Source of the DNA: an uncultured Bacilli bacterium
GTDB lineage: Bacteria; Bacillota_I; Bacilli_A; RF39; UBA660
Assembly: GCA_934120015.1 (NCBI GenBank)
Contig: CAKOTD010000024.1
Location: 1-18,103, forward strand
Direction: 5' to 3'
Length of the DNA stretch: 18,103 nucleotides
Below are positions 4,218 through 18,103 of this stretch, in pieces. The position numbers and the translations under genes are program-made. Each line of letters opens with the position of its first letter. The stretch's first letter is position 1. Below the pieces are notes generated by a model. That model ran no database searches. It worked only from the letters and a program-made list of their open reading frames with translations, and was not told the origin of the DNA.

Positions 4218-4562
4218 ATGTTAGAAATTGATATAGATAATAAGAAGGGATTTTTGTTCGTTAAAGTAAGTGGGGAATTAAACGAAAAAACCATTGTAAA
4301 GTGGGATAATGATGTAAAAGATTTAATAATAGATAATGGCGTTAGAAATGTTGTTTTTGATATATCAAATTTGAATAACATTGATATAAATGGTATTAAA
4401 TCTCTATATTATAGTTATAACATTTGCAGAAAGAATAAAGGTATTGCCTTTCTATGTGGTATCAGTAACTTAATAAGAGAAAAACTTAATAAAAGTAATA
4501 TCTTAAATTATATTAATGAAGTAAAAGATGAAAAAACAATATTATCTATTATAACATTATAG
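4218..4562 (+). CDS. spoIIAA: STAS-domain anti-sigma-factor antagonist, SpoIIAA-like, with the phospho-acceptor serine replaced
   Basis: 114-aa ORF with a GAGGTG RBS. It aligns without gaps to B. subtilis SpoIIAA over ~100 aa (SGEL, VRNVVFDISNLNNIDINGIKSL versus [23 protein letters not shown]). It sits immediately upstream of sigF. The D-S58-S-G position is D-I-N-G here (Ile codon ATA at 4386-4388). Confidence 0.8.
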   Translation: MLEIDIDNKKGFLFVKVSGELNEKTIVKWDNDVKDLIIDNGVRNVVFDISNLNNIDINGIKSLYYSYNICRKNKGIAFLCGISNLIREKLNKSNILNYINEVKDEKTILSIITL

Positions 4563-4569
4563 GAGAGAT

Positions 4570-5229
4570 ATGATTGATAATGAAGAACTGATTATTAATA
4601 ATCAAAACTTAATTTATTATATTATTAATACATATTTTGGAAACTATCAAAATAAAAATGATCTTTTTCAGGTTGGCTGCATTGGATTAATTAAAGCTAG
4701 TAAAAATTATAATCAACAATACAATACTAAATTTTCTACATATGCATTTTCCTATATAATGGGTGAAATAAAGAATTATATAAGAAGTGATAAGGGAATA
4801 AAAATTAGTCATGATATGCAAAAAATTGCTTACAAAGTAGAAAAAGTTAGAATTATGTTATATCAAAAATTAATGCGTGAACCAACTATAGAAGAATTAT
4901 CAAACTTTTTAAATATTCAAGAACAAAAGTTAAAAGAAATTATGTGCATACCAACAGGTATACAAAGCTTGGATGAAACATTTGATGATTCAGATAATGA
5001 TTATTATGAATATGTTGCTAGTGATCAAAATAGGAATATTGATGATATAATTGCTTTAAGAGATAGTATAAAAGATTTAAATGAGCTTGAACAAAAAATA
5101 ATTAAAATTAGATACAAATATGATATGACACAAACAGAAACAGCTAAAATATTAGGCATGAGTCAGGTTCAGGTTTCAAGAAATGAAAAAAAAGTTTTGA
5201 TAAAATTAAGAGACAAATTACGTGTGTAA
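4570..5229 (+). CDS. sigF: Forespore sigma factor of the SigF/SigG family, called sigF by position
   Basis: 219-aa ORF. An AGGAG RBS (4561-4565) overlaps the spoIIAA stop. Motifs: DLFQVGCIGLIKA, KFSTYAFSYIMGEIKNYIR, GIKISHDMQKIAYK, MSQVQVSRNEKKVL. Synteny spoIIAA-sigF-spoVA matches Bacillus and Clostridium. Some motifs (DLFQVGCIGL, IAYK) look as close to SigG as to SigF. It is short at the N-terminus compared with B. subtilis SigF. Confidence 0.8.
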   Translation: MIDNEELIINNQNLIYYIINTYFGNYQNKNDLFQVGCIGLIKASKNYNQQYNTKFSTYAFSYIMGEIKNYIRSDKGIKISHDMQKIAYKVEKVRIMLYQKLMREPTIEELSNFLNIQEQKLKEIMCIPTGIQSLDETFDDSDNDYYEYVASDQNRNIDDIIALRDSIKDLNELEQKIIKIRYKYDMTQTETAKILGMSQVQVSRNEKKVLIKLRDKLRV

Positions 5230-7629: not shown

Positions 7630-10600
7630 ATGAAGAAAAAAGGATTTACATTAATAGAATTATTAACAGTAATAGTAGTACTAGCAATAATCGCATTAAT
7701 AACAGTACCAATAGTAAATGGGATAACAAGAAGAGCAGAAAAATCAGCATTTAGACAAAGTGCAGTAGGAATATTAAATACAATAAAATTAGATAGGTCA
7801 AATAGTGGATATATAGCAAAAGAAGAAAATGATAAATATGAAATAAAAGATAAAAAAATATATTTTGAAGAAGAACCAATAAAAACAAAACATACTGGAG
7901 AGATAACAGGAGTAGGAGATGTATACGTAAATAAAGATGGAAGTATGGCAATAGCGTATACAAATAATAAATGGTGTGCATATAAAAGCTACGCAAATAC
8001 GACGGTAAAGATAATAAGTGGAAATTGTGAAAATGTAATAACAAAAACATGTAAAGAACCAGTATATGAGATAGAAGATGAAGAAATATGGACACAGCAA
8101 AAACAAATAAAGAGTATAGAGGCAGCAAGTGGGGAAGATTGTACAATATATTATAAGGATGAAAATGAGCAGTGGGTGAAATTTGAAAAAAGTATTATAT
8201 ATAAGCAAAATAAATTATATTTGAAATTATTAGGAACATTAAATGAAGAAACAAAATATGAAAAAGACTTGAAAATAGATAGAACAAAGCCAGATAGTAT
8301 AGAGGTAGAAGCACAATCAACAACTCCAAATACAATAACAGTAAATGTAATAGGAACAGATAATGAAAGTGGAATATCAAAATATGCATATAGTAGTGAT
8401 AATGGAGCAACATGGAGTAAATGGGTAGATGAAGACATATATACATTTGAGAATATAGAACCAGGAGCCTATAGAATAAAAGCAAAGGTATATAATGGAA
8501 CATATGGAACAAGTGGAGCAAGAGATTCACTAGGAGTATTAGAATCAGAAGCAACATTAGTAACAACAACAACATGTTCAGTTCCGAAAATAGAAGTAGA
8601 TCAAACAGGATGGGCCCAATCAAAAGTAGTAACAATAGATTATAGAAGTACAACAGGATGTGTAGGAAGTTATAGTATAGATAACGGAGTGACATGGAAT
8701 GAAGGAACAAGTGTAACAATAAGTGAAAATAATGTAAAAGTTTTAGCTCGAAATGTTGTAGGAGATAATGAAACAAGGTCAGAATTATTAATAGATAAAA
8801 TAGATAGAAGTAAACCAACAAATGTAACATATACAACTAAAACAACCCCAACAAGTATAATAGTAAATGTAATAGGAACAGATGAAGAAAGTGGAATAGA
8901 AAGATATGCCTATAGTATAGATGGAGGAAATACATGGACAGCCTGGAGGGCAGAAAATAGTTATACATTTAATAATTTAACACCAGAAACAGAATATACA
9001 ATAAAAGTAAAAGTATATAATGGAACATATAATGGAAAGTATGAAACAATTAAATATGAGACAAATACATATTCTGTAGATAAAAATGTTCAAAATAATA
9101 CAATTTACAAATATAGAATGTTAACAACAACAGATGAAACAACATGGAGTAGTGCATCAAATGAAAAAAAATTAGTACCAGCAGAGACAAATAGAATATC
9201 ATTAGTAGGAGTAGGAGGAAATAAAAAAGTAACATTAGGATGGAATAATGTAACAGGAGTAGAAACATATAGAATACAAAAATTAATAGATGGTATATAT
9301 AAGACAGTAGCAACAACTGAAGGAACTACTTATGTAGATACAGATGTAACAAATAATACAGAGTATACATATAGAGTAATATCTCAAGATGCAAAAGTAA
9401 AAAGTGTAGAATTAAAAATAAAACCAACAGAAAATCAAGAGTTAGGAATAGAAGGAATAAATGGAGATAAGCAAGTAACATTAATATGGGGAAATATAAC
9501 CGGAGTAAAGAAATATAGAATACAAAGAGTAAAGGCAGGAAGCCAAAGTAATGATGAAATGGGTGTACTAGAGTCAAATGAAACAAGGGTAGTAAAAACC
9601 ACATCATGTTTAGCACCAGAAATAACAGTAGAGCCAGCAGGAGATGTGTGGAGAACACAAAAGACTGTAACAATAACATATAAAGAAGCGGAATGTAAAG
9701 TAAGAAAATATAGTATAGATGGAGGAACTACTTGGGAAGAAACAAGTAATGATATAGTAGAAAAAACAATTACCAAGAATAATACAACAGTAATAGGCTA
9801 TGCAGGTGTAAGTGAAACAAAAGGTGAATCAGCAACATTAAAAGTAACAAAAATAGATAATACAACACCAGTAGTAAACATAATAGCAAATAAAAAGTCA
9901 GCAGGTGACGAAGTAAAAAGCAATACATGGAGTAATGAAACATTAACATATACATTTACAAAAACAACAGGAGATAGTGGAGCAACAATATATTATTGTA
10001 AAGATAAAACAAATAGTTGTGAGCCAACAACAAAGGTAACAAATACAGTATCTATGACAGATACAGGAATATACTATATAAGATATAAAGCAGTAAGTGG
10101 TGCAGGAAAAACTTCAACAGTAGATACATATACAGCTAAGGTAGATACAACAAAGCCAACCGCAGTAATAACAGTAAAAAATAGTAGTGGAAATATAGTA
10201 ACAGATGGTAAAATAGTAGATCAAACAGACACATATACAGTAACAATAGGATGTAGTGTAGGGTCATCTGGATTAAAATCTTCTTCATCAAATGTTAAAG
10301 TAGGTACAGATATAAAAAAAGAAAATACAGGAACAACGAATACAAATACATTTGATCTAACTTATAGTGATGTAAGCTATGTATGTCCTGATAAATGTAA
10401 TGAGATTGCCTCTAATGCAGGGAATAGTTGTGCAAACAACTGTACAGAAAATTGCGGGGTTGTATGTAGTAATACAGCTCTTACAGCATATAGAAATAGT
10501 TGTAAACCGGAATGTGAAGCAGCAAATACAAATGGTGGTATATATAATTGTGCTCTTTATGGAGGAACTGTTATAAATAAAATACCTGTAGTAATTACGG

Positions 10601-10857
10601 CAAATTGTACAAATAATGCCAACATAACAGGTTCTGATACAACATTTGAGTTGACATTTCAAGATGATACTACTATTGAAGATATAACCGCAGACGATTC
10701 ATCAGATGATTATTGTACATGTTATACTTCATATAATACTTTGAATACTTGTCAGTGGTATCGTAATTGTTCTTGTACAACACCAAGTGGTAGAAAGATA
10801 AATAAAACTTGCAGAAATAGTGGTAAATCTGATTCATTATGTATTTACAGATGCTAA
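7630..10857 (+). CDS. Giant (1075 aa) protein with a prepilin-type N-terminal cleavage/methylation signal, tandem Ig/FN3-like modules and a Cys-rich C-terminal region
   Basis: The N-terminus MKKKGFTLIELLTVIVVLAIIALITVPIV is the class III (type IV pilin/pseudopilin) signal G-FTLIE plus a hydrophobic helix. Module boundaries K(I/V)DxT(K/T)P recur four times. The modules are duplicated (see repeat features). FN3-like units occur (GNKKVTLGWNNVTGVETYRIQ..., GDKQVTLIWGNITGVKKYRIQ). The last 158 aa contain 18 Cys by my count. No PilB/PilC/PilD-type genes are in the window. Confidence 0.85.
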   Translation: MKKKGFTLIELLTVIVVLAIIALITVPIVNGITRRAEKSAFRQSAVGILNTIKLDRSNSGYIAKEENDKYEIKDKKIYFEEEPIKTKHTGEITGVGDVYVNKDGSMAIAYTNNKWCAYKSYANTTVKIISGNCENVITKTCKEPVYEIEDEEIWTQQKQIKSIEAASGEDCTIYYKDENEQWVKFEKSIIYKQNKLYLKLLGTLNEETKYEKDLKIDRTKPDSIEVEAQSTTPNTITVNVIGTDNESGISKYAYSSDNGATWSKWVDEDIYTFENIEPGAYRIKAKVYNGTYGTSGARDSLGVLESEATLVTTTTCSVPKIEVDQTGWAQSKVVTIDYRSTTGCVGSYSIDNGVTWNEGTSVTISENNVKVLARNVVGDNETRSELLIDKIDRSKPTNVTYTTKTTPTSIIVNVIGTDEESGIERYAYSIDGGNTWTAWRAENSYTFNNLTPETEYTIKVKVYNGTYNGKYETIKYETNTYSVDKNVQNNTIYKYRMLTTTDETTWSSASNEKKLVPAETNRISLVGVGGNKKVTLGWNNVTGVETYRIQKLIDGIYKTVATTEGTTYVDTDVTNNTEYTYRVISQDAKVKSVELKIKPTENQELGIEGINGDKQVTLIWGNITGVKKYRIQRVKAGSQSNDEMGVLESNETRVVKTTSCLAPEITVEPAGDVWRTQKTVTITYKEAECKVRKYSIDGGTTWEETSNDIVEKTITKNNTTVIGYAGVSETKGESATLKVTKIDNTTPVVNIIANKKSAGDEVKSNTWSNETLTYTFTKTTGDSGATIYYCKDKTNSCEPTTKVTNTVSMTDTGIYYIRYKAVSGAGKTSTVDTYTAKVDTTKPTAVITVKNSSGNIVTDGKIVDQTDTYTVTIGCSVGSSGLKSSSSNVKVGTDIKKENTGTTNTNTFDLTYSDVSYVCPDKCNEIASNAGNSCANNCTENCGVVCSNTALTAYRNSCKPECEAANTNGGIYNCALYGGTVINKIPVVITANCTNNANITGSDTTFELTFQDDTTIEDITADDSSDDYCTCYTSYNTLNTCQWYRNCSCTTPSGRKINKTCRNSGKSDSLCIYRC
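8272..8508 (+). repeat. Intragenic module A, copy 1 (KIDRTKP...VYNGTYG)
   Basis: KIDRTKPDSIEVEAQSTTPNTITVNVIGTDNESGISKYAYSSDNGATWSKW...YRIKAKVYNGTYG is paralogous to copy 2 at 8797-9036. The similarity is visible at nucleotide level (aaaatagatagaa..., gtaaatgtaataggaacagat, gtatataatggaacatat). Confidence 0.8.
8530..8796 (+). repeat. Intragenic module B, copy 1 (LGVLESEATLVTTTTCSVPKIEV...)
   Basis: LGVLESEATLVTTTTCSVPKIEVDQTGWAQSKVVTIDY...YSIDNGVTWNE... is paralogous to copy 2 at 9559-9849. Confidence 0.7.
8797..9036 (+). repeat. Intragenic module A, copy 2 (KIDRSKP...VYNGTYNG)
   Basis: KIDRSKPTNVTYTTKTTPTSIIVNVIGTDEESGIERYAYSIDGGNTWTAW...YTIKVKVYNGTYNG. See copy 1. Confidence 0.8.
9559..9849 (+). 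repeat. Intragenic module B, copy 2 (MGVLESNETRVVKTTSCLAPEITV...)
   Basis: MGVLESNETRVVKTTSCLAPEITVEPAGDVWRTQKTVTITY...YSIDGGTTWEE... See copy 1. Confidence 0.7.
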
Positions 10858-10935: not shown

Positions 10936-12765
10936 ATGCTAGATAAAATTGATAATATACATAATATAGCTAATTTTAATGATAAAGAACTTTCTGATTT
11001 GGCAAGTGAAATGAGAAATGTAATAATTGAACAAGTATCGAGAAATGGTGGACATTTGGCATCTAACTTAGGACTTGTTGAACTTACAATTTCTTTATTC
11101 AAAAATTTTAATTTCGATAATGATAAGATTATATTTGATGTAGGACATCAATGCTATGCATATAAAATATTAACTGGTAGAAAAAATGATATGATTAATC
11201 TTAGAAAATATAAGGGAATGAGTGGATTTCCTAAAAGTAAAGAAAGCAAATATGACTTCTTTAATACAGGCCATGCTAGTAACTCTATATCAGCAGCTAT
11301 TGGAATGGCAAGAGCTAGAGATCTTTTGGGAAAAAATTACAATATTATTACTTTAATTGGTGATGGAGCAATGACTGGTGGAATGACATTTGAAGCTCTA
11401 AATGATTTAGGTGATCGTAAAACAAAAATGCTTATTATTTTAAATGATAATGGAATGTCAATTTCAAATAATGTTGGCGGACTTTCCAATTGTTTAGATA
11501 AGATAAGAATTAATCCATTTTATAATAGACTTAAGAAAAGGGCACATTATAGACTTGATAAAATTAAAAGTAAAAAAATTAGTAATGTCATTCATAATAT
11601 CAAAAGTGGGATTAAAAATATGTTACTACCATCTATGTATTTTGAAAATTTGGGTATTAAATATATAGGACCTATTGATGGTCATAATATAAAGAAATTA
11701 AACAAAGTTCTTTCCAAAATAAAAAATATAGATGAACCAGTTGTATTACATGTTAAAACTATTAAAGGTAAAGGGTATAAATATTCTGAGGAATGCCCCA
11801 ATAAATATCATGCAGTAGGAGCATTTGATATAAAAACTGGTGCTGTCAATAACAATAATTCTAGTTACTCAAGTACCTTTGGAAATAAGTTATGCTCTAT
11901 AGCTAGTCATAATAAAAGAATAGTAGCAATTACAGCAGCCATGAAAGATGGAACCGGGCTTTCAAAATTTGCCGAAAAGTTTCCAAAAAGATTTTTTGAT
12001 GTAGGTATTGCTGAAGAACATGCGGTTACACTTGCAGCAGGTTTTGCTATATCAGGGTATAAACCTTATTTTGCAGTATATTCAACCTTTTTGCAGAGAA
12101 GTTTTGATCAAATTATAGAAGATGTGTGTATGCAAAAATTACCCGTTACATTTATGATTGATAGGTCAGGACTTGTTGGAGAAGATGGTGAAACACATCA
12201 TGGAATATTTGATAGTTCTTATTTAAATTTAATTCCTAATTTAACAATTATGCAGCCAAAAAGTCTAATAGAACTCGAAAAAATGCTTGATTTTTCTGTT
12301 AGTTTTAATGGTCCACTTGCTATAAAATATTGTAAGGGTAAAAATAACTATAAATTTAATGAAGAAAATACTATTGAATATGGTAAATGGGAAATAGTTT
12401 CTAACGGAAATAATCTTGTTATTATAGCAACTGGTCGTATGGTTGAACTTGCTATGATGGCAAAAGAAAAAATTAAAAAAGATATTATGATTATTAATGC
12501 TAGATTTATTAAACCAATTGATACTAAATTATTAGATAGAATAATTAAAAATAATAATAGGATTTTAGTATTAGAAGAAAATAATATTATTGGAGGTTTA
12601 TCTACTTCTGTTATGCATTATGTTAATAAGAGAATTAATATAATGGGAATAAATGATAGATTTGTTGAACAAGGAAGTATTGAGGAACTATTGAAAGACC
12701 AAAAGATTAGTGTTAATGACATATGCAAAAAAGTAAATAAACTATTAAAAGAAGATATAAAATAA
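10936..12765 (+). CDS. dxs: 1-deoxy-D-xylulose-5-phosphate synthase
   Basis: ORF 10900..12765. I start at ATG 10936 (MLDKIDNI...), with an AGAGG RBS at 10921-10925. Hallmarks: GGHLASNLGLVELT, FDVGHQCYAYKILTGR, a TPP-binding GDGAMTGGMTFEALN...LNDN motif, GIAEEHAVT, DRSGLVGEDGETHHG. Confidence 0.92.
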   Translation: MLDKIDNIHNIANFNDKELSDLASEMRNVIIEQVSRNGGHLASNLGLVELTISLFKNFNFDNDKIIFDVGHQCYAYKILTGRKNDMINLRKYKGMSGFPKSKESKYDFFNTGHASNSISAAIGMARARDLLGKNYNIITLIGDGAMTGGMTFEALNDLGDRKTKMLIILNDNGMSISNNVGGLSNCLDKIRINPFYNRLKKRAHYRLDKIKSKKISNVIHNIKSGIKNMLLPSMYFENLGIKYIGPIDGHNIKKLNKVLSKIKNIDEPVVLHVKTIKGKGYKYSEECPNKYHAVGAFDIKTGAVNNNNSSYSSTFGNKLCSIASHNKRIVAITAAMKDGTGLSKFAEKFPKRFFDVGIAEEHAVTLAAGFAISGYKPYFAVYSTFLQRSFDQIIEDVCMQKLPVTFMIDRSGLVGEDGETHHGIFDSSYLNLIPNLTIMQPKSLIELEKMLDFSVSFNGPLAIKYCKGKNNYKFNEENTIEYGKWEIVSNGNNLVIIATGRMVELAMMAKEKIKKDIMIINARFIKPIDTKLLDRIIKNNNRILVLEENNIIGGLSTSVMHYVNKRINIMGINDRFVEQGSIEELLKDQKISVNDICKKVNKLLKEDIK

Positions 12766-12778
12766 TCATATTGAACTT

Positions 12779-12884
12779 GTCAACAAAAAGTAGATAGTAA
12801 AAAGATTTTATTTAAATCCTAGTTGAGTTCTATTGAATCAAGGTTTTAATGATATTTTTTATAAACTATCTACTTTTACTTGAC
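12779..12884. repeat. 20-bp imperfect inverted repeat (18/20) enclosing a nested hairpin, at the dxs/island junction
   Basis: GTCAACAAAAAGTAGATAGT (12779-12798) pairs with ACTATCTACTTTTACTTGAC (12865-12884). An inner hairpin TTGAGTTC-TATT-GAATCAA lies at about 12822-12840. No T-tract follows on either strand, so it is not a canonical terminator. Confidence 0.6.
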
Positions 12885-12916
12885 TAGTTTATTAATCATG
12901 AGATCTTGATAAATAG

Positions 12917-13386
12917 ACTAAAAAAATTGATTTTTCTGATGATGAATTTTGGTTTATTAATAAAATTATAAATGAACAACCAGATAATTTGGAAAAGGGT
13001 TTAGCATTAGGAAATCAATTAAGCCAATGGTTTGCTTTGTATTATTTTGACAGAATTGATAGGTTAGTTAAAGAAAAGTTAAGAATAAGGTATATGGATG
13101 ATTTTATATTGATTCATCATGATAAACGATACTTGCAATATTGTTTAGAAGAGATAAATAAAGTTTGTAATGAGAAATTAAATTTAGAACTTAATCAAAA
13201 AACACAAATTGGAATTGCATACAATGGCATAGATTTTCTTCTAAACAAAGAATGAGAAAACATATCAAAGCAATAAAAAATTGAAAAACAAATCTATTAT
13301 TGATGAAGAATATAATTAACTCTTTTAAAGCACATTTAAAATATTCTAACGAAAAATGTGATAAATTATTATCAAATATAAAATAA
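12917..13386 (+). pseudogene. Reverse transcriptase remnant (DGR-like), 5'-truncated and frameshifted
   Basis: The open frame from 12917 reads ...EKGLALGNQLSQWFALYYFDRID...RIRYMDDFILI...LNQKTQIGIAYNGIDFL. These are RT motif 4 in the [ILV]GxxxSQ form, motif 5 YMDD, and the GIDFLG-like motif 7. RT motifs 1-3 are absent (in-frame TAG at 12914-12916, no start). After the TGA at 13253-13255 the homology-like tail continues in another frame with internal stops (…IINSFKAHLKYSNEKCDKLL…, ending at TAA 13384-13386). Confidence 0.6.
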
Positions 13387-13431
13387 AATTTATGAATTTT
13401 CAAAAAACAATAAGAAAAAAATGAGATTATA

Positions 13432-13440
13432 TGGTAAAAT
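13432..13440 (+). promoter_or_regulatory. Extended -10 element upstream of the AAA+/VWA cassette (TGgTAAAAT)
   Basis: TG at 13432-13433, one nucleotide, then TAAAAT at 13435-13440, which is 22 nt before ATG 13462. I see no convincing -35. Confidence 0.35.
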
Positions 13441-13461
13441 GTAATTATAGTGGTGATTAAA

Positions 13462-15378
13462 ATGAATAGTCAAGATTTAACTTTATTGTCTGAAGGACAA
13501 ATTTGGGGAAATAGTAGTGAACCTCAATTAGAAGTAATTAGAAAATACGGAACAAAAGCTGCAATTACGGATTTATGTGTTTTAACCGGTGGTTATTTAT
13601 GTGAAGATACTGATGATAATATAGATGAAGATAGATCTTTAACTGGTAGAACTAGTTATTTTTGGACTAGATCTGATGATGGCGATAATGATGTCCGCGC
13701 GGTCTATAAGAATGGTAGTAGGTACCTCAAATCTAGGTATACCCGCACTGGTGCTGTTCGCCCAGTTTTGCAATCTTCTGTAATCTTTTCCCAAATCTCC
13801 CCGAACAGAGTGAGGGGATACAATGGAACAGAAGAAGTAGAATATGGAGAATATCCTCAAAATGCTGCTGATTCAAGAATGCAAAATATACTAGAGTCAG
13901 AATATAATGGAGGAATGAATAAGACAGGAAGAAGTTACACATTTGATTCTGTAAAATATGATGCCTATGATACAGGATTTAAACCTGTAACTTATGAAGA
14001 ATACGAATATCAAGGAAAGAAATATATTCGTATAAAAGCTAACCCTAATTTTGGTGGCAGTAAATTCAAGCTTTCAAATGGTGTTGAATATAGAAAGGGT
14101 GATTACGTTTGGGTAGAAGTATCACCAGTTAAATGGTTGATAGATGATAGAACAGGAATTTTAATTTCAAAAAAAGGATTGGTTTCTGGTATAAGATTTC
14201 TTGATACTATTTATAAAGGTGATTTTGATAGAACAGAAATGAAAGAATATCTTGATAGATATATGCTTCGAGATTTAACTCAAACTGTAACATTTACTCG
14301 TGTTCAAAATATGACACCAGAAGAAAAAGCTAAATTTGAAGAAGAACAAAAACAAGCCGAAAGAAAAAGAAACCCTTATGGTTTAAAATTTGGACAAGTA
14401 AGTGAAGAAGAAATCATAAGAGGAGCAATAGAAAGTGGTGTAGCAGTATTTTTGCATGGCCCTTCATCAGAGGGTAAATCTGCAAGAGTAAAACAAATAG
14501 ATCCTACTTGCGAAATAATATATCTTCGTAATGCGACACCAGAAAGTTTAAATGGTAAAAGTGTATATAATGGATCAACAGGAGAAATGATGGATGTTCC
14601 ACCAACATGGCTTAAGAAATTACAAGAAAAATGTGAAAAGGAACCAGATAGACTTCATGTAGTATTCTTTGATGAAATAACAAATGCTCTACCAAGTATT
14701 CAAGGTATAGCGTTTAATATAGTTTTAGATAGAGAAGTAAATGGTATTTGGAAATTACCAGAAAATGCTAGAATTGTAGCAGCAGGAAATGATATGAAAG
14801 ATTCATTAGCTGCAAATCAGTTAGCAGAACCATTATTCAATAGATTTGCTCATGTATATATTAAAACAACAACCGAAGGTTGGTTAAAGTGGGCAAGTGA
14901 ACATAATATACATCCAGCAATTTATTCTTATATTGCTTATAAGAAGGGTGAAACACTCCGAAGTAAGTATGATGGTGAGAAACCTAATGCTGATCCTAGA
15001 AAATGGGAAATGGCTTCTAAAATGCTTTATGCAACAGGAAGCCCAGAAATGTTAAGGGCATTAGTAGGTGAAGATATAACAAGAGAATTTGTTGAGTTTT
15101 GTAATCAACAAGTAATAACATTAGATGATGTAATAAATGGAAATTATACCGATAGAGATATAAAGGCATTAAATACTGCTGAAAGATATGCAACAACTAT
15201 GGGATTAACGCAGGTAGACAATGATAATTTAGAAAAAGTTAGAGGATTCGTTACAGGATTAGGAGCAGAGTTTGGAGCAATTTTTGATGCTTTATGGACA
15301 CATGGTGATGAAAGTAAGTTAGAAAGACTTGCAGAAGCAAAACTTGCTGAAATGCCGGGAGGAGGTATAAGAAGATAA
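13462..15378 (+). CDS. Cassette gene 1: N-terminal beta-rich (DUF6273-like) domain fused to a MoxR/AAA_5-like AAA+ ATPase with a C-terminal helical extension
   Basis: ORF 13450..15378. I prefer ATG 13462, with GGTGA 5 nt upstream. Walker A is FLHGPSSEGKS (GPSSEGKS at 14458-14481). Walker B is HVVFFDE (DE at 14671-14676). A sensor-1-like RIVAAGND and LFNRF (Arg at 14842-14844) follow, the usual MoxR order. The N-terminal ~300 aa carry SYFWTRS...GAVRPVL and EYGEYPQ...WVEVSPVKWLIDD motifs that I associate with the Firmicute YWLRS/VRPAL domain family (DUF6273, from memory). Confidence 0.8.
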   Translation: MNSQDLTLLSEGQIWGNSSEPQLEVIRKYGTKAAITDLCVLTGGYLCEDTDDNIDEDRSLTGRTSYFWTRSDDGDNDVRAVYKNGSRYLKSRYTRTGAVRPVLQSSVIFSQISPNRVRGYNGTEEVEYGEYPQNAADSRMQNILESEYNGGMNKTGRSYTFDSVKYDAYDTGFKPVTYEEYEYQGKKYIRIKANPNFGGSKFKLSNGVEYRKGDYVWVEVSPVKWLIDDRTGILISKKGLVSGIRFLDTIYKGDFDRTEMKEYLDRYMLRDLTQTVTFTRVQNMTPEEKAKFEEEQKQAERKRNPYGLKFGQVSEEEIIRGAIESGVAVFLHGPSSEGKSARVKQIDPTCEIIYLRNATPESLNGKSVYNGSTGEMMDVPPTWLKKLQEKCEKEPDRLHVVFFDEITNALPSIQGIAFNIVLDREVNGIWKLPENARIVAAGNDMKDSLAANQLAEPLFNRFAHVYIKTTTEGWLKWASEHNIHPAIYSYIAYKKGETLRSKYDGEKPNADPRKWEMASKMLYATGSPEMLRALVGEDITREFVEFCNQQVITLDDVINGNYTDRDIKALNTAERYATTMGLTQVDNDNLEKVRGFVTGLGAEFGAIFDALWTHGDESKLERLAEAKLAEMPGGGIRR

Positions 15379-15770
15379 TGGAAACCAAGAAAGAAATATT
15401 ATTATCATATATTAAAGCAAATGTTGCACCAATATTAGTTGATTTTATATCTGGTAAGGATTTGAATGGTGTAGTTGTAGTACCTGCCAATGTTGATGTT
15501 AAAGAGTTAAATGGTCATTATGATGGAGTAGATTTTATACCTCCTAAATGGCTTAATGAAATATTAAGTACAAATGCTAATAGAATATTAGTAATTGATA
15601 AAATTGATTCGATTTCTAAAGAAGAACAATTAAAGTTTTGTGAATTATTAGAACATAGGAAAATATCTACATTTGAATTACCTAAAAGCTGTGTAATAAT
15701 TGTTACTGCAAATGAAATAAATAAAGATAAAATAAGTGAAGAAATATTTTCATTAGTTGCACGAATTTGA
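15378..15770 (+). CDS. Cassette gene 2: 130-aa degenerate paralog of the gene-1 AAA+ core (Walker A lost, Walker B DE changed to DK)
   Basis: The start overlaps the gene-1 stop (TAATG at 15376-15380). It aligns to gene 1 as follows: IPPKWLNEIL to VPPTWLKKLQ, RILVIDKID to HVVFFDEIT (DK at 15597-15602), FELPKSCVIIVTANE to WKLPENARIVAAGND. The P-loop register reads FISGKDLN instead of GPSSEGKS. Confidence 0.7.
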   Translation: METKKEILLSYIKANVAPILVDFISGKDLNGVVVVPANVDVKELNGHYDGVDFIPPKWLNEILSTNANRILVIDKIDSISKEEQLKFCELLEHRKISTFELPKSCVIIVTANEINKDKISEEIFSLVARI

Positions 15771-15780
15771 GGTGTAAGTT

Positions 15781-17346
15781 ATGAAATATGATATAGCAGC
15801 ATTAAAAAGAAAAATGCTTGTTAAATATCCTTTTTTTGGGAGTGTAGTAGCAAGTGTATGTTATAAAGAAAACAAAGATATTCCAACCGCAGGCACAGAT
15901 GGAGAAACAATATATTATAATCCGGAATATTTAGATGGATTAAGTGTTGAGGAACAAACTTTTATATTTGCCCATGAAGTATGTCATATTGCATTCAATC
16001 ATATATTGAGAAGTGAAGGTAAGAATCCTGAATTATGGAATATTGCTACTGATGGTGTTATTAATCAATTTTTAAAACGAGATGGTTTAAAAATGGCACC
16101 AGGTGGTGTTGATATGGCAGAAGCTATTAATTATGATGCTGAACAACTATATGAAAAATTATTACAAGAAAAACAGCAAGGACAACAACAAAGTGGACAA
16201 GGTAATAGTCAACAAAATCAACAACAAAGTAGTGGTGGTAGTCAAGGTGGAAATAATCAACAACAACCTCAATCACAACAACAGAATGGAGAATCACAAA
16301 ATCAAGAAAGTAAACAGCAAAGTAGTGATGGAGGACAAAGTGGTGATAATCAACAACAATCTCAATCACAGCAACAAGGTAATTCAGGTAGTGGAAGTTC
16401 ACAAGAACAAAAAAAACAATCACAAGAACAGAGTGGTGGTGAATCTGGTGAAGATTCACAAAAAGAAGATAAATCAAAACCAGATGTTGGGCATGATACT
16501 CACAGTATGTGGGAACAAGCAGTAAAAAAACATAAAGAACAACAAGAAAAAACTGATGAAAAAGAGAGTTTATTAGATAAATTATTAGGAAAAGATAAAA
16601 AAGATAAAGAGAAAACTGAACTTGAAAAGAAACAGGAAGAACTTGAAAGTATGGGAGAAAAAGATGCTTTTAAAAAGAACCTTGAAGATAAGAAAAAACA
16701 GCTTGAAGAATTAAAAGAGGCAATTTCAAAACAAGCATCACAGGCTGGTACATCAACGAATAGAGATATTAGAACAGTTAATGATATAGGTACTGCTAAA
16801 CCATTAATTGATTGGCGTTATGTTTTAAGAGAGGCAATTAAGTATGATGTTGATTGGTCTTATAAAAATGCAACATTAGAAGAGGGTGTAGTTAGTGCTA
16901 ATTTAGAAGAACAGCCAATGCCAGAAACTGAAATTGTTCTTGATACAAGTGGTTCAATAAATGAAGTATTATTAAAGAACTTTTTAAGAGAATGTAAAAA
17001 TATATTACAACATACTAAATTAAAAGTTGGATGTTTTGATACAGAATTTTATGGATTTCATGAGATTAGAACAGAAGAAGATATAGAAAAGATGCAATTT
17101 GAAGGTGGAGGAGGTACTGACTTCGACGTTGCTGTAGGTTCTTTCTCAAGACGAGTTGAAAATAAAATAATTTTTACTGATGGTGAAGCTTCAATGCCAG
17201 ATATGCCACTTGATGCAATATGGATAGTTTTTGGTGGTGAAAGAATTAATCCTAAAGGTGGTAAAGTAATTCATATAGACAATGAACAACTTGAAAGACT
17301 ATATAATTATCAAATGACTAATGAAACAAAAGGAAGGTCAAGGTAA
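15781..17346 (+). CDS. Cassette gene 3: HExxH metallopeptidase-like domain, Gln-rich low-complexity linker, Lys/Glu coiled coil and VWA-like domain with MIDAS (DUF2201_N/DUF2201-type architecture)
   Basis: GAGGTG RBS 6 nt upstream. The N-domain is YPFFGSVV...TAGTDGETIYYNPEYL...FIFAHEVCHIAFNH...LWNIATDGVINQFL (HEVCH at 15973-15987). The VWA part has EIVLDTSGSI (DTSGS at 16942-16956), GGGGTDF (Thr at 17116-17118) and IIFTDGEA (Asp at 17179-17181), a complete MIDAS set. Confidence 0.85.
   Translation: MKYDIAALKRKMLVKYPFFGSVVASVCYKENKDIPTAGTDGETIYYNPEYLDGLSVEEQTFIFAHEVCHIAFNHILRSEGKNPELWNIATDGVINQFLKRDGLKMAPGGVDMAEAINYDAEQLYEKLLQEKQQGQQQSGQGNSQQNQQQSSGGSQGGNNQQQPQSQQQNGESQNQESKQQSSDGGQSGDNQQQSQSQQQGNSGSGSSQEQKKQSQEQSGGESGEDSQKEDKSKPDVGHDTHSMWEQAVKKHKEQQEKTDEKESLLDKLLGKDKKDKEKTELEKKQEELESMGEKDAFKKNLEDKKKQLEELKEAISKQASQAGTSTNRDIRTVNDIGTAKPLIDWRYVLREAIKYDVDWSYKNATLEEGVVSANLEEQPMPETEIVLDTSGSINEVLLKNFLRECKNILQHTKLKVGCFDTEFYGFHEIRTEEDIEKMQFEGGGGTDFDVAVGSFSRRVENKIIFTDGEASMPDMPLDAIWIVFGGERINPKGGKVIHIDNEQLERLYNYQMTNETKGRSR
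16174..16460 (+). repeat. CAA/CAG-rich low-complexity tract encoding a Q/S/G/N-rich segment, with an internal 60-nt duplication
   Basis: About 97 codons, of which I count 37 Gln and no aliphatic or aromatic residues. QSSGGSQGGNNQQQPQSQQQ (16225-16284) is repeated as QSSDGGQSGDNQQQSQSQQQ (16318-16377), with 15/20 aa identical. Confidence 0.85.
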
Positions 17347-17391
17347 AACAAAGATTTAGAAAAAAATCTGAATCTTTTTTGTACTATAAAA

Positions 17392-17636: not shown

Positions 17637-18103
17637 ATGAAGTATGGAGGTGGGATTGATATATCAAAAGGGAAAAGCACAATAGCAATATTATCAGTTG
17701 CAGGTGAGGCAATTGAAGAACCATTTGAAATAAATCATGATATTAATGGACTAAATCTATTGGAAGAAAAAATAAAAGATATTCCAAAAGAATATTTAAA
17801 AATGACGGAAGTATTATAGCATATGCTGGATTAGATGCCCCACCATATCAATCCGGACAATTCGAAGCAACAAATAGACATATATCTAAACGAGGAAATA
17901 AATATTTAAGAAAAACTGAATATGAAATAATGAAATCCATACAAAGTAGTTGTAAAACAGATAATGAATTAAAATCTTATATTATCAAAAAAGAAAATGA
18001 AGGTAAATTAAAGAAAGTAACAAAAATTGCAGGATTAAATAGGTTTTTGAGAATGTATTATGGAATTGTGAAAAAGACATATAAAGAACTAGAAATATGG
18101 TAA
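17637..18103 (+). pseudogene. IS110-family transposase/recombinase, internally deleted (N-terminal ~55 aa joined out of frame to C-terminal ~95 aa)
   Basis: 17637-17819 encodes MKYGGGIDISKGKSTIAIL...FEINHDINGLNLL, the N-terminal GIDxSK DEDD-type motif, and stops where the EATGxYH core should follow. From about 17822, in a different frame (open 17747-18103), it reads YAGLDAPPYQSGQFEATNRHISKRGNKYLRKT...GKLKKVTKIAGLNRFLRMYYGIV, the C-terminal Transposase_20-like part. The roughly 200-aa middle is missing. The window ends at its TAA stop. Confidence 0.7.

Follow-up and report, generated by a model that had tools for sequence, protein, structure and literature searches.

The DNA considered here, called the window throughout, is a stretch of 18,103 nucleotides (positions 1 to 18,103 of contig CAKOTD010000024.1) from an uncultured Bacilli bacterium. 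Its forward strand carries, downstream of dxs, a compact cassette of three genes, g1 (13462-15378, 638 aa), g2 (15378-15770, 130 aa) and g3 (15781-17346, 521 aa), whose products we denote G1, G2 and G3. A preliminary description, made without database searches, had drawn the limits of these genes correctly, but had taken an adjacent fragment of a reverse transcriptase (RT) for the scar of an unrelated mobile element. Related loci show that this fragment is the 3' remnant (aa 168-353) of the cassette's own RT, and we have very little doubt that G1, G2 and G3 together form the module on which a diversity-generating retroelement (DGR) acts.

The three genes are tightly packed. The g1 stop codon overlaps the g2 start in the sequence TAATG at 15376-15380, and g2 and g3 are separated by a 10-nt gap with a GAGGTG; both details had been noted earlier and both are present. 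The GAGGTG overlaps the g2 stop codon. Ahead of g1 and its ribosome-binding site is an extended -10-like element, TGGTAAAAT (TGgTAAAAT, 13432-13440, + strand). Other loci have it too: it is conserved in L007 and present as a variant in L004. A consensus promoter scan did not call this element because it has no -35. Besides the g1 ATG at 13462 there is an upstream GTG at 13450. The operon ends at an intrinsic terminator on the + strand (17350-17380; 11-bp stem then a T-run, -10.1 kcal/mol, z = -3.98), and DNA homology to other cassettes stops at 17380-17383, that is, at the terminator. In cassettes that have no RT, the shared DNA starts at 13374-13430. Neither terminal inverted repeats nor an integrase were seen for this 4-kb promoter-to-terminator unit, and an Rfam scan of the window returned no known RNA family.

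Retroelement genes and repeats around the cassette

Across 79 loci, the only recurrent neighbours of the cassette are DGR genes. Directly upstream of G1 in 13 loci lies an RT of 353-354 aa (RVT_1 9e-19, PHROG RT 2.8e-106), and in the 12 related loci that are intact the order is avd-like gene, template repeat (TR), RT, G1, G2, G3. The gene upstream of the TR encodes 193-203 aa and resembles avd by three profiles: NF033474 (1e-5, over the whole profile), Pfam bAvd (1.4e-5) and the PHROG family 'Avd protein of DGR' (5.5e-11), the NCBIfam and Pfam matches being below their curated cut-offs. The TR itself, a repeat of 80-100 nt between the avd-like gene and the RT, matches G1 codons ~77-103, which form the variable repeat (VR).

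The mismatches between the two repeats fall almost entirely at adenines of the TR. In a test that covered ten related loci plus L093, the proportions were 12/12, 10/10, 11/11, 10/10, 12/12, 11/12, 9/11, 7/9 and 11/14, the last from an IMG/VR locus that is ~50% identical. The window has a VR at 13692-13771 (+ strand, g1 codons 77-103), and all 10 of its differences from the TR of L012 are at TR adenines. Its GC-rich 3' end, GCTGTTCGCCCAG, resembles the homing end (IMH, initiation of mutagenic homing) of other DGR repeats. Since an avd-TR-RT organisation together with adenine-specific mutagenesis defines a DGR, G1 is identified as the DGR target. The arrangement recalls the DGR of Bordetella phage BPP-1 (avd-TR-brt, target mtd) in its core of avd-like gene, TR and RT, its adenine-specific mutagenesis, its AAY-rich TR codons and its GC-rich repeat 3' end. 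It differs in that the BPP-1 target lies upstream of avd and has a C-terminal VR, whereas in the relatives of our cassette the target is downstream of the RT and the VR is near the N-terminus, an arrangement reported as rare, in 3/372 DGRs (PMC5758913).

What remains of the DGR in the window is an RT pseudogene at 12920-13392 (+ strand), corresponding to RT aa 168-353 and detected both by tblastn with the intact L012 RT and by RVT_1 (5.8e-6). Four codons have been deleted, ~16 residues are lost through a frameshift and two stops interrupt the frame, but the SQ motif (LALGNQLSQW) and YMDD can still be read. The avd gene, the TR and the 5' half of the RT are absent from the window. From 12890 to 17379 the window is contiguously homologous, at 85-86% nucleotide identity, to the RT-G1-G2-G3 segments of L012, L021, L027 and L036, and we conclude that its cassette is an orphaned DGR target whose DGR half has decayed. 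The same is true elsewhere: near the cassette the RT is intact in 12/79 loci, reduced to a 5'-truncated remnant in 7 (window included) and missing in 60/79. The seven remnants are truncated to differing extents, implying that the DGR half decays repeatedly while the target operon persists.

Could the RT nevertheless be an unrelated scar beside a generic von Willebrand factor A (VWA)-MoxR conflict cassette, as the earlier description had it? The 60/79 loci with no RT sequence beside the cassette would fit such a reading. DNA homology that runs unbroken from the RT remnant into g1, and an explicit TR/VR relationship, speak so directly against it that we regard it as highly improbable.

Several further features accompany the repeats. 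Downstream of the window VR, at 13798-13818 (+ strand), is a putative short hairpin, TCCCC...GGGGA, which might perhaps be a DGR target-recognition element; over 16 loci 88.8% of its cells are paired and two pairs show compensatory changes, with a folding z-score of just -1.35. A different short hairpin lies 3' of the TR (L012 8692-8740, L058 8691-8740, L093 6703-6760) and is followed by a conserved AAAACAGGTCAGAGAAATATATTTTA; its stem shows compensatory changes (AGATT/AATCT, AGGTTTT/AAAACCT, GAATCG/CGATTC), and it probably belongs to the DGR RNA, as the spacer that serves in priming. Upstream of avd, at 1729-2398 of L031 and in the same place in L012, L035 and L036, two XRE-type helix-turn-helix genes of 87 aa each stand in tandem on the opposite strand, and several intact DGR loci also have a 162-aa gene without annotation upstream of avd; either or both may encode regulators of the element. 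Nine loci (L032, L037, L041, L042, L047, L049, L052, L069 and L077) have 2-5 tandem G1 paralogs for one or two G2-G3 sets, and in L042 a single TR matches four VRs, making this a multi-target DGR.

Domain structure of the three proteins

G1 begins with a DUF6273-like variable domain (aa 1-~275), which a helical linker joins to a MoxR-like AAA+ region (aa ~317-638). The first of these had been described as a beta-rich domain of about 300 residues; the domain is real, and what had been missed is that it is the variable domain of a DGR. Variation is concentrated where the TR predicts. Among the 120 closest G1 sequences (at least 90% identical) the nine columns of highest entropy (at least 2.4 bits) are aa 82, 83, 84, 86, 88, 89, 90, 94 and 96, exactly the nine AAN codons of the TR. 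Entropy averages 1.54 bits over the VR, but 0.31 over the remainder of the N-domain and 0.11 over the ATPase. The dN/dS ratio is 2.1-5.2 for the VR and 0.06-0.65 for other segments of g1 and g3; for g2, the values of 1.8 and 1.0 against the two closest cassettes reflect very few substitutions and are uninformative. Judged by these ratios and by the unbroken reading frames, the cassette genes are intact and g1 and g3 are under purifying selection outside the VR.

An AlphaFold2 model of the N-domain (pLDDT, the predicted local distance difference test, 93.5) shows the VR as a beta-hairpin, with strands at 78-81 and 87-90, and the loop that follows. DUF6273 has been described from gut phages as a C-type-lectin-like domain at the N-terminus of DGR targets, with the VR on a hairpin (PMC10743442; bioRxiv 10.1101/2024.10.15.618418), and 11/53 G1 homologs match its hidden Markov model (HMM) at 0.01 or better, the best at 3.5e-6. 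A lectin fold is thus likely but unproven: window g1 scores 0.077, below threshold, and a Foldseek search of the N-domain model against PDB and BFVD found nothing significant, its best BFVD match being a DUF6273 protein at E 0.11. The DUF6273 targets, which include the 'tentaclins' (same two sources), are like G1 in their gut Firmicutes setting and in often outliving their DGR. They are receptor-binding or decoration proteins of phages, with Ig-like domains, whereas G1 is cytoplasmic, cellular and ATPase-fused, and matches the HMM weakly. The N-terminal module of ~275 residues is widespread (1679 clusters at 50% identity); many of the proteins that contain it consist of the module alone (270-350 aa), others have tandem copies, and others again are fused to ankyrin, leucine-rich, DUF4116 or pentapeptide repeats.

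The C-terminal part of G1 is, from its motifs, a MoxR-like AAA+ ATPase, and is predicted to be active. Walker A (GPSSEGKS, 333-340; 14458-14481), Walker B (FFDE, 402-405; 14665-14676), the sensor-1 motif AAGND (440-444) and the arginine-finger motif LFNRF (458-462), all picked out in the preliminary description, are invariant or nearly so in 53 homologs. The gene matches the phage ATPase family phrog_1297 at 3.6e-46. Its Pfam AAA_5 score of 15 bits is below the gathering cut-off of 22, and AAA_5 is matched at E <=0.01 by 20/53 homologs; of the Pfam families that had been expected for the cassette, AAA_5 and DUF6273 stay below threshold for g1, and PF13203 and PF09967 are found above it in g3. 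Neither g1 nor a profile of 53 sequences found a match when searched by sequence against the PDB. In Foldseek, the AlphaFold2 model of G1 has as its top matches NorQ (probability 1.00, E 1e-5), the MoxR ATPase CHU_0153, MCM and dynein; the model is weak in the ATPase inserts, with pLDDT <50 at 421-427, 448-468 and 493-510. A fold closest to MoxR members and a VWA gene in the same operon both hold for G1. Proteins of the P0412 type (580 aa) are 88% identical to window G1 up to Walker B (aa 410) and then continue into an unrelated C-terminus of ~165 aa; these are chimeric or truncated ATPases.

G2 aligns over its full length to G1 residues 317-465, the alpha/beta core (hhalign probability 91%, E 1e-6), and has lost the P-loop, the Walker B glutamate and the arginine finger. 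This supports the earlier view of it as a crippled copy of that core: a degenerate AAA+ core derived from a g1-like ATPase and, by its motifs, ATPase-dead. It is present in Bacilli-type cassettes and missing from a two-gene version found in Clostridia. We rejected the small gene that lies between the phage ATPase and VWA genes as a counterpart of g2, finding no similarity between them.

G3 matches DUF2201_N (2.9e-36, 125.9 bits) and DUF2201 (1.3e-13, 51.6 bits), both above threshold, as had been proposed earlier, and phrog_1314 at 2.4e-68. The zincin-like DUF2201_N domain spans aa 8-178, the linker aa ~131-330 and the VWA-like DUF2201 domain aa 385-500. The zincin motif HEVCH (65-69; 15973-15987) with H74, and the metal ion-dependent adhesion site (MIDAS) residues D388, S390, S392, T446 and D467 (DTSGS at 16942-16956), do not vary, or are conserved to at least 90%, among 47 homologs, and there is a weak similarity to the minigluzincin MJ1213. 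The linker, Q/S/G-rich and then K/E-rich, is of variable length. Internal imperfect DNA repeats of ~119 nt at 16165-16383 code for its Q/S/G-rich part, and G3 homologs range from 369 to 761 aa, with linkers of widely varying length.

None of the three products has a membrane-spanning hydrophobic segment or a signal-like N-terminus, and on this criterion all three are predicted to be cytoplasmic. A search of NCBIfam with the three proteins gave nothing useful.

The island and the rest of the window

Horizontal acquisition of the cassette in this genome, also suggested in the preliminary description, is supported by comparison of a filled and an empty site. The relative L089 is 93% identical in nucleotide sequence through a pilin-like gene and dxs and has no island; homology of the window to it stops at 12771, and its convergent sigma-factor gene follows 15 nt after dxs. 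Locus L094, a 185-kb contig from the same species as the window (98.3% nucleotide identity), has the same island, then the same sigma gene and neighbours. The insertion between dxs and the convergent sigma-factor gene is thus ~5.5 kb long. It is flanked by a 15-bp direct repeat, ATAAAATAATCATAT, whose left copy (12757-12771, unstranded) overlaps the dxs stop codon and whose right copy lies just past the window end; L089 4889-4903, in the empty site, aligns to both junctions of the filled site in L094. For the dxs of the window a single relative exceeds 72% identity, while G1 falls into >120 clusters at >=90% identity, implying that the host lineage is rare and the cassette widely shared. Composition, which had been offered as a sign of transfer, is no evidence of it: GC content at third codon positions is 0.09-0.15 in the cassette and 0.11-0.17 in host genes, equal to the host's, and the rise in overall GC reflects amino-acid content.

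Besides the RT remnant and the cassette, the island contains a palindrome and an insertion-sequence remnant. The palindrome (12772-12891, unstranded), imperfect and ~120 nt long, comes directly after the left direct repeat and so marks the island's left edge, with dxs on one side and the RT remnant on the other. It shows up as an inverted repeat when the sequence is compared with itself, has a folding energy of -35.8 kcal/mol (z = -6.4 relative to shuffled sequences) and could be a recombination site or resemble a miniature inverted-repeat transposable element. The dead IS110 element noted earlier is real. It lies outside the cassette at 17637-18103 (+ strand; DEDD_Tnp_IS110 0.0037 and frame translations) and is internally deleted, leaving an N-terminal piece of 60 aa and a C-terminal piece of ~95 aa in another frame; the same remnant is present in L094.

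An island so decayed might hold a cassette that is itself a functionless relic, kept in this genome only because its insertion was recent. The dead DGR half, the dead IS110 and the palindromic element point that way, as does the 93%-identical relative that does without the island. We nevertheless think this improbable. The three open reading frames are intact with every catalytic motif present, dN/dS outside the VR is low for segments of g1 and g3, promoter and terminator have been conserved, and the two strains that keep the island differ in their VRs in a DGR-like pattern. Between these strains 18/80 VR bases differ, 15 of them at TR-A positions, compared with 2.3% in the rest of g1. The VR differences could be due either to a DGR elsewhere in the genome that acts on the VR or to recombination of the N-terminal region.

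A few features elsewhere in the window also stand out. The first ~118 nt (1-118), which contain a hairpin AAATCCTTCC...GGAAAGGATTT, recur inverted at 12380-12492 of the metagenomic contig L001, ~90 nt beyond the right window end, and may be a terminator-like element or an inversion substrate. At 1149-2384 a 411-aa protein combines HD_4 and RelA_SpoT domains and is apparently a short bifunctional Rel-type enzyme that has dispensed with the usual C-terminal regulatory domains. At 4218-5229 a STAS (SpoIIAA-like) gene lies 8 nt upstream of the gene for a sigma factor of 219 aa; the SpoIIAB-type anti-sigma kinase gene that usually separates the two in a spoIIA operon is missing. Finally, the gene at 7630-10857 encodes a protein of 1075 aa with an N-terminal type IV pilin methylation motif and BNR and fn3 matches. 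It contains internal DNA repeats (~190 nt, 8319-8505 against 8841-9030; also 9203-9286 against 9449-9532), and the length of its product varies between strains (1075, 1080 and 995+ aa).

Relatives, function and wider meaning

The trio is a conserved unit outside this genome. When one genome was scanned for each species, relatives of g1 turned up in ~129 of them, the hosts being mostly metagenome-assembled genomes of uncultured gut 'Bacilli/Tenericutes' (CAG:417, CAG:605, CAG:609, Faecisoma), with some Clostridia such as Zhenpiania hominis and Lentihominibacter. Adjacency of G1, G2 and G3 holds down to ~50% identity. Clostridia-type loci have G1-G3 without G2, and Zhenpiania hominis is a cultured species with this two-gene form.

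The two families to which G1 and G3 belong also occur together in phages, and a direct phage origin had been put forward as one possibility. We reject the idea that the cassette is phage-borne: it has no close relative in 2.9 million viral contigs (IMG/VR), and the one distant IMG/VR locus stands beside a prophage lysis module, not inside it, with an ABC-transporter gene in between. The phage pair (PHROG 1297 and 1314; PMC7824862) shares the two families and their order with the cassette, for example in phage nACB1, and is found in Schitoviridae and in PA5oct-like and group 2.2 jumbo phages. It has no variable domain, G2 or DGR, lies in replication or early-gene modules and is 25-33% identical, so that the likeness is one of domain families only.

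These phage relatives bear on one alternative account of function, in which the cassette is a housekeeping-type chaperone and maturation protease for a variable client, the DGR keeping it matched to something fast-evolving such as a prophage or surface-protein precursor. The same two families stand side by side in >500 phage records (in Schitoviridae next to helicase and DNA polymerase genes, and in jumbo phages), an assembly role has been proposed for the phage pair (PMC7824862), and where synteny is kept the cassette has diverged about as fast as the genes around it, as in vertical, core-like inheritance. No recurrent client gene was found across the 79 loci, however, the phage versions have neither the variable domain nor G2 (the small phage gene between them being unrelated to it), and diversification by a DGR argues for a ligand that is unpredictable. 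We give this account a minor share of the probability.

Closer parallels come from bacteria. Lectin-fold domains diversified by DGRs have been tied to MoxR-vWA conflict systems by comparative genomics (PMC7159879, PMC10907252), and for these DGR-linked systems a role as antigen sensors has been predicted from genomes. Of these, the 'VMAP ternary' systems (Kaur et al. 2020, PMC7159879; Dore et al. 2024, PMC10907252) resemble our cassette in uniting a DGR-varied ligand-binding domain with a MoxR ATPase, a VWA domain and a peptidase, in having proteins predicted to be intracellular, and in the sensor role proposed for them. The differences are several. Their hosts are cyanobacteria, gammaproteobacteria and other multicellular bacteria, whereas the cassette belongs to unicellular, small-genome gut Bacilli and some Clostridia. 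Their variable lectin-fold domain is C-terminal, usually on the VWA protein, or is a separate target beside the ATPase, whereas in G1 it is N-terminal and on the ATPase. Their peptidase is trypsin- or caspase-like and part of the VMAP protein, compared with a DUF2201_N zincin fused to the VWA domain in G3, and their third component is the VMAP protein, where the cassette has a dead AAA+ core. Beyond the 130-aa G2, the cassette has no conserved further gene that could be a VMAP-domain gene, although no direct VMAP profile search was made. The known DGR-linked MoxR-vWA examples are also large multi-gene loci in hosts that are hard to grow.

The pairs NorQ-NorD, CbbQ-CbbO and RavA-ViaA likewise combine a MoxR AAA+ ring with a MIDAS VWA partner, NorQ being the top structural match of G1. 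Unlike the cassette, they mature defined metalloenzymes within their operons and have no peptidase and no hypervariable domain. In searches of the literature for DUF2201, and for DGR surveys that mention ATPase-fused gut targets, we met no account of the architecture found here; the nearest description is of some candidate phyla radiation DGR targets that match a Midasin-type AAA domain (PMC5758913). The principle of joining DGR, MoxR, vWA and peptidase is thus already known, and what is new is the cassette's architecture and its host group.

How might such a cassette work? In intact relatives the RT copies the TR with adenine-specific errors into the VR, rewriting the beta-hairpin on the G1 N-domain. 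The variable domain would serve to sense ligands in the cytoplasm, invader proteins such as those of phages being the most plausible. By analogy with NorD on NorQ, the MIDAS of G3 would dock on the G1 ring, and once a ligand is bound, remodelling driven by ATP would activate or release the zincin of G3, or deliver substrate to it. The zincin might cut either the captured ligand or a host target and so lead to immunity or abortive infection. G2, again by analogy, may be a non-catalytic ring partner or a regulator. Taken whole, a DGR target module with a sensor that drives a VWA-tethered protease is the explanation we prefer, at somewhat better than even chances. For the sensor or conflict function on its own, argued from related systems, we put the chances at about even. 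The earlier reading of the cassette as a conflict system survives as the best guess, although it had overlooked the diversifying link that the RT provides.

A number of points weigh against this proposal. The neighbourhoods of the cassette are mostly housekeeping (pheST, tyrS, tsaD, pnp, dinB, LysR) and not defence islands; of the checks suggested earlier, the conservation of the unit was borne out and enrichment in defence islands was not. A search of PADLOC-DB 2.0 with the three proteins gave weak partial matches only (HamB 0.032, Csn2 8.6e-4, GajB 0.0098). The role proposed for the phage relatives is in virion assembly and not defence (PMC7824862). The family is known from its sequences alone, and the contact between G1 and G3, the role of G2 and the substrate of the protease are drawn from analogy. 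With an intact RT nearby in only 12/79 loci, moreover, many cassettes, including that of the window, may be either inactive or fixed in their specificity.

The same anatomy would serve a programmable capture-and-degrade machine, in which substrates are captured by the variable domain, unfolded by the AAA+ ring and passed to the G3 zincin for degradation; this differs from our preferred explanation only in what the protease cuts. A binding domain fused to the ATPase and a protease tethered through its VWA domain are what such a machine would have, and NorQ, the nearest structural relative, engages its VWA partner through the ring. MoxR-class ATPases, on the other hand, are known as remodelling chaperones and not as processive unfoldases, and G1 offers no pore-loop or translocation evidence, with low model confidence in its ATPase inserts. 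We consider this version unlikely, about on a par with the chaperone account.

The sensor explanation can be carried one step further, more speculatively. The DGR would write specificities into a lectin-like sensor on a MoxR ring, which would license a VWA-tethered zincin through its MIDAS, the whole forming a compact immune receptor with somatic diversification, and orphan cassettes such as that of the window would be re-diversified in trans. We regard this as possible but doubtful. If it is true, DGR-programmed intracellular sensing is not tied to multicellularity, and a unit of three genes, or six with the DGR genes, would be small enough for direct testing. Because the variable domain is on the ATPase itself, any coupling of binding to hydrolysis would be directly testable.

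For annotation, an RT fragment beside such a cassette is to be read as a decayed DGR and not as unrelated debris. The family needs little more than its three target genes, avd, the TR and the RT, and is common in human-gut Firmicutes. It also shows that systems of the DGR and MoxR-vWA kind are not confined to multicellular bacteria.

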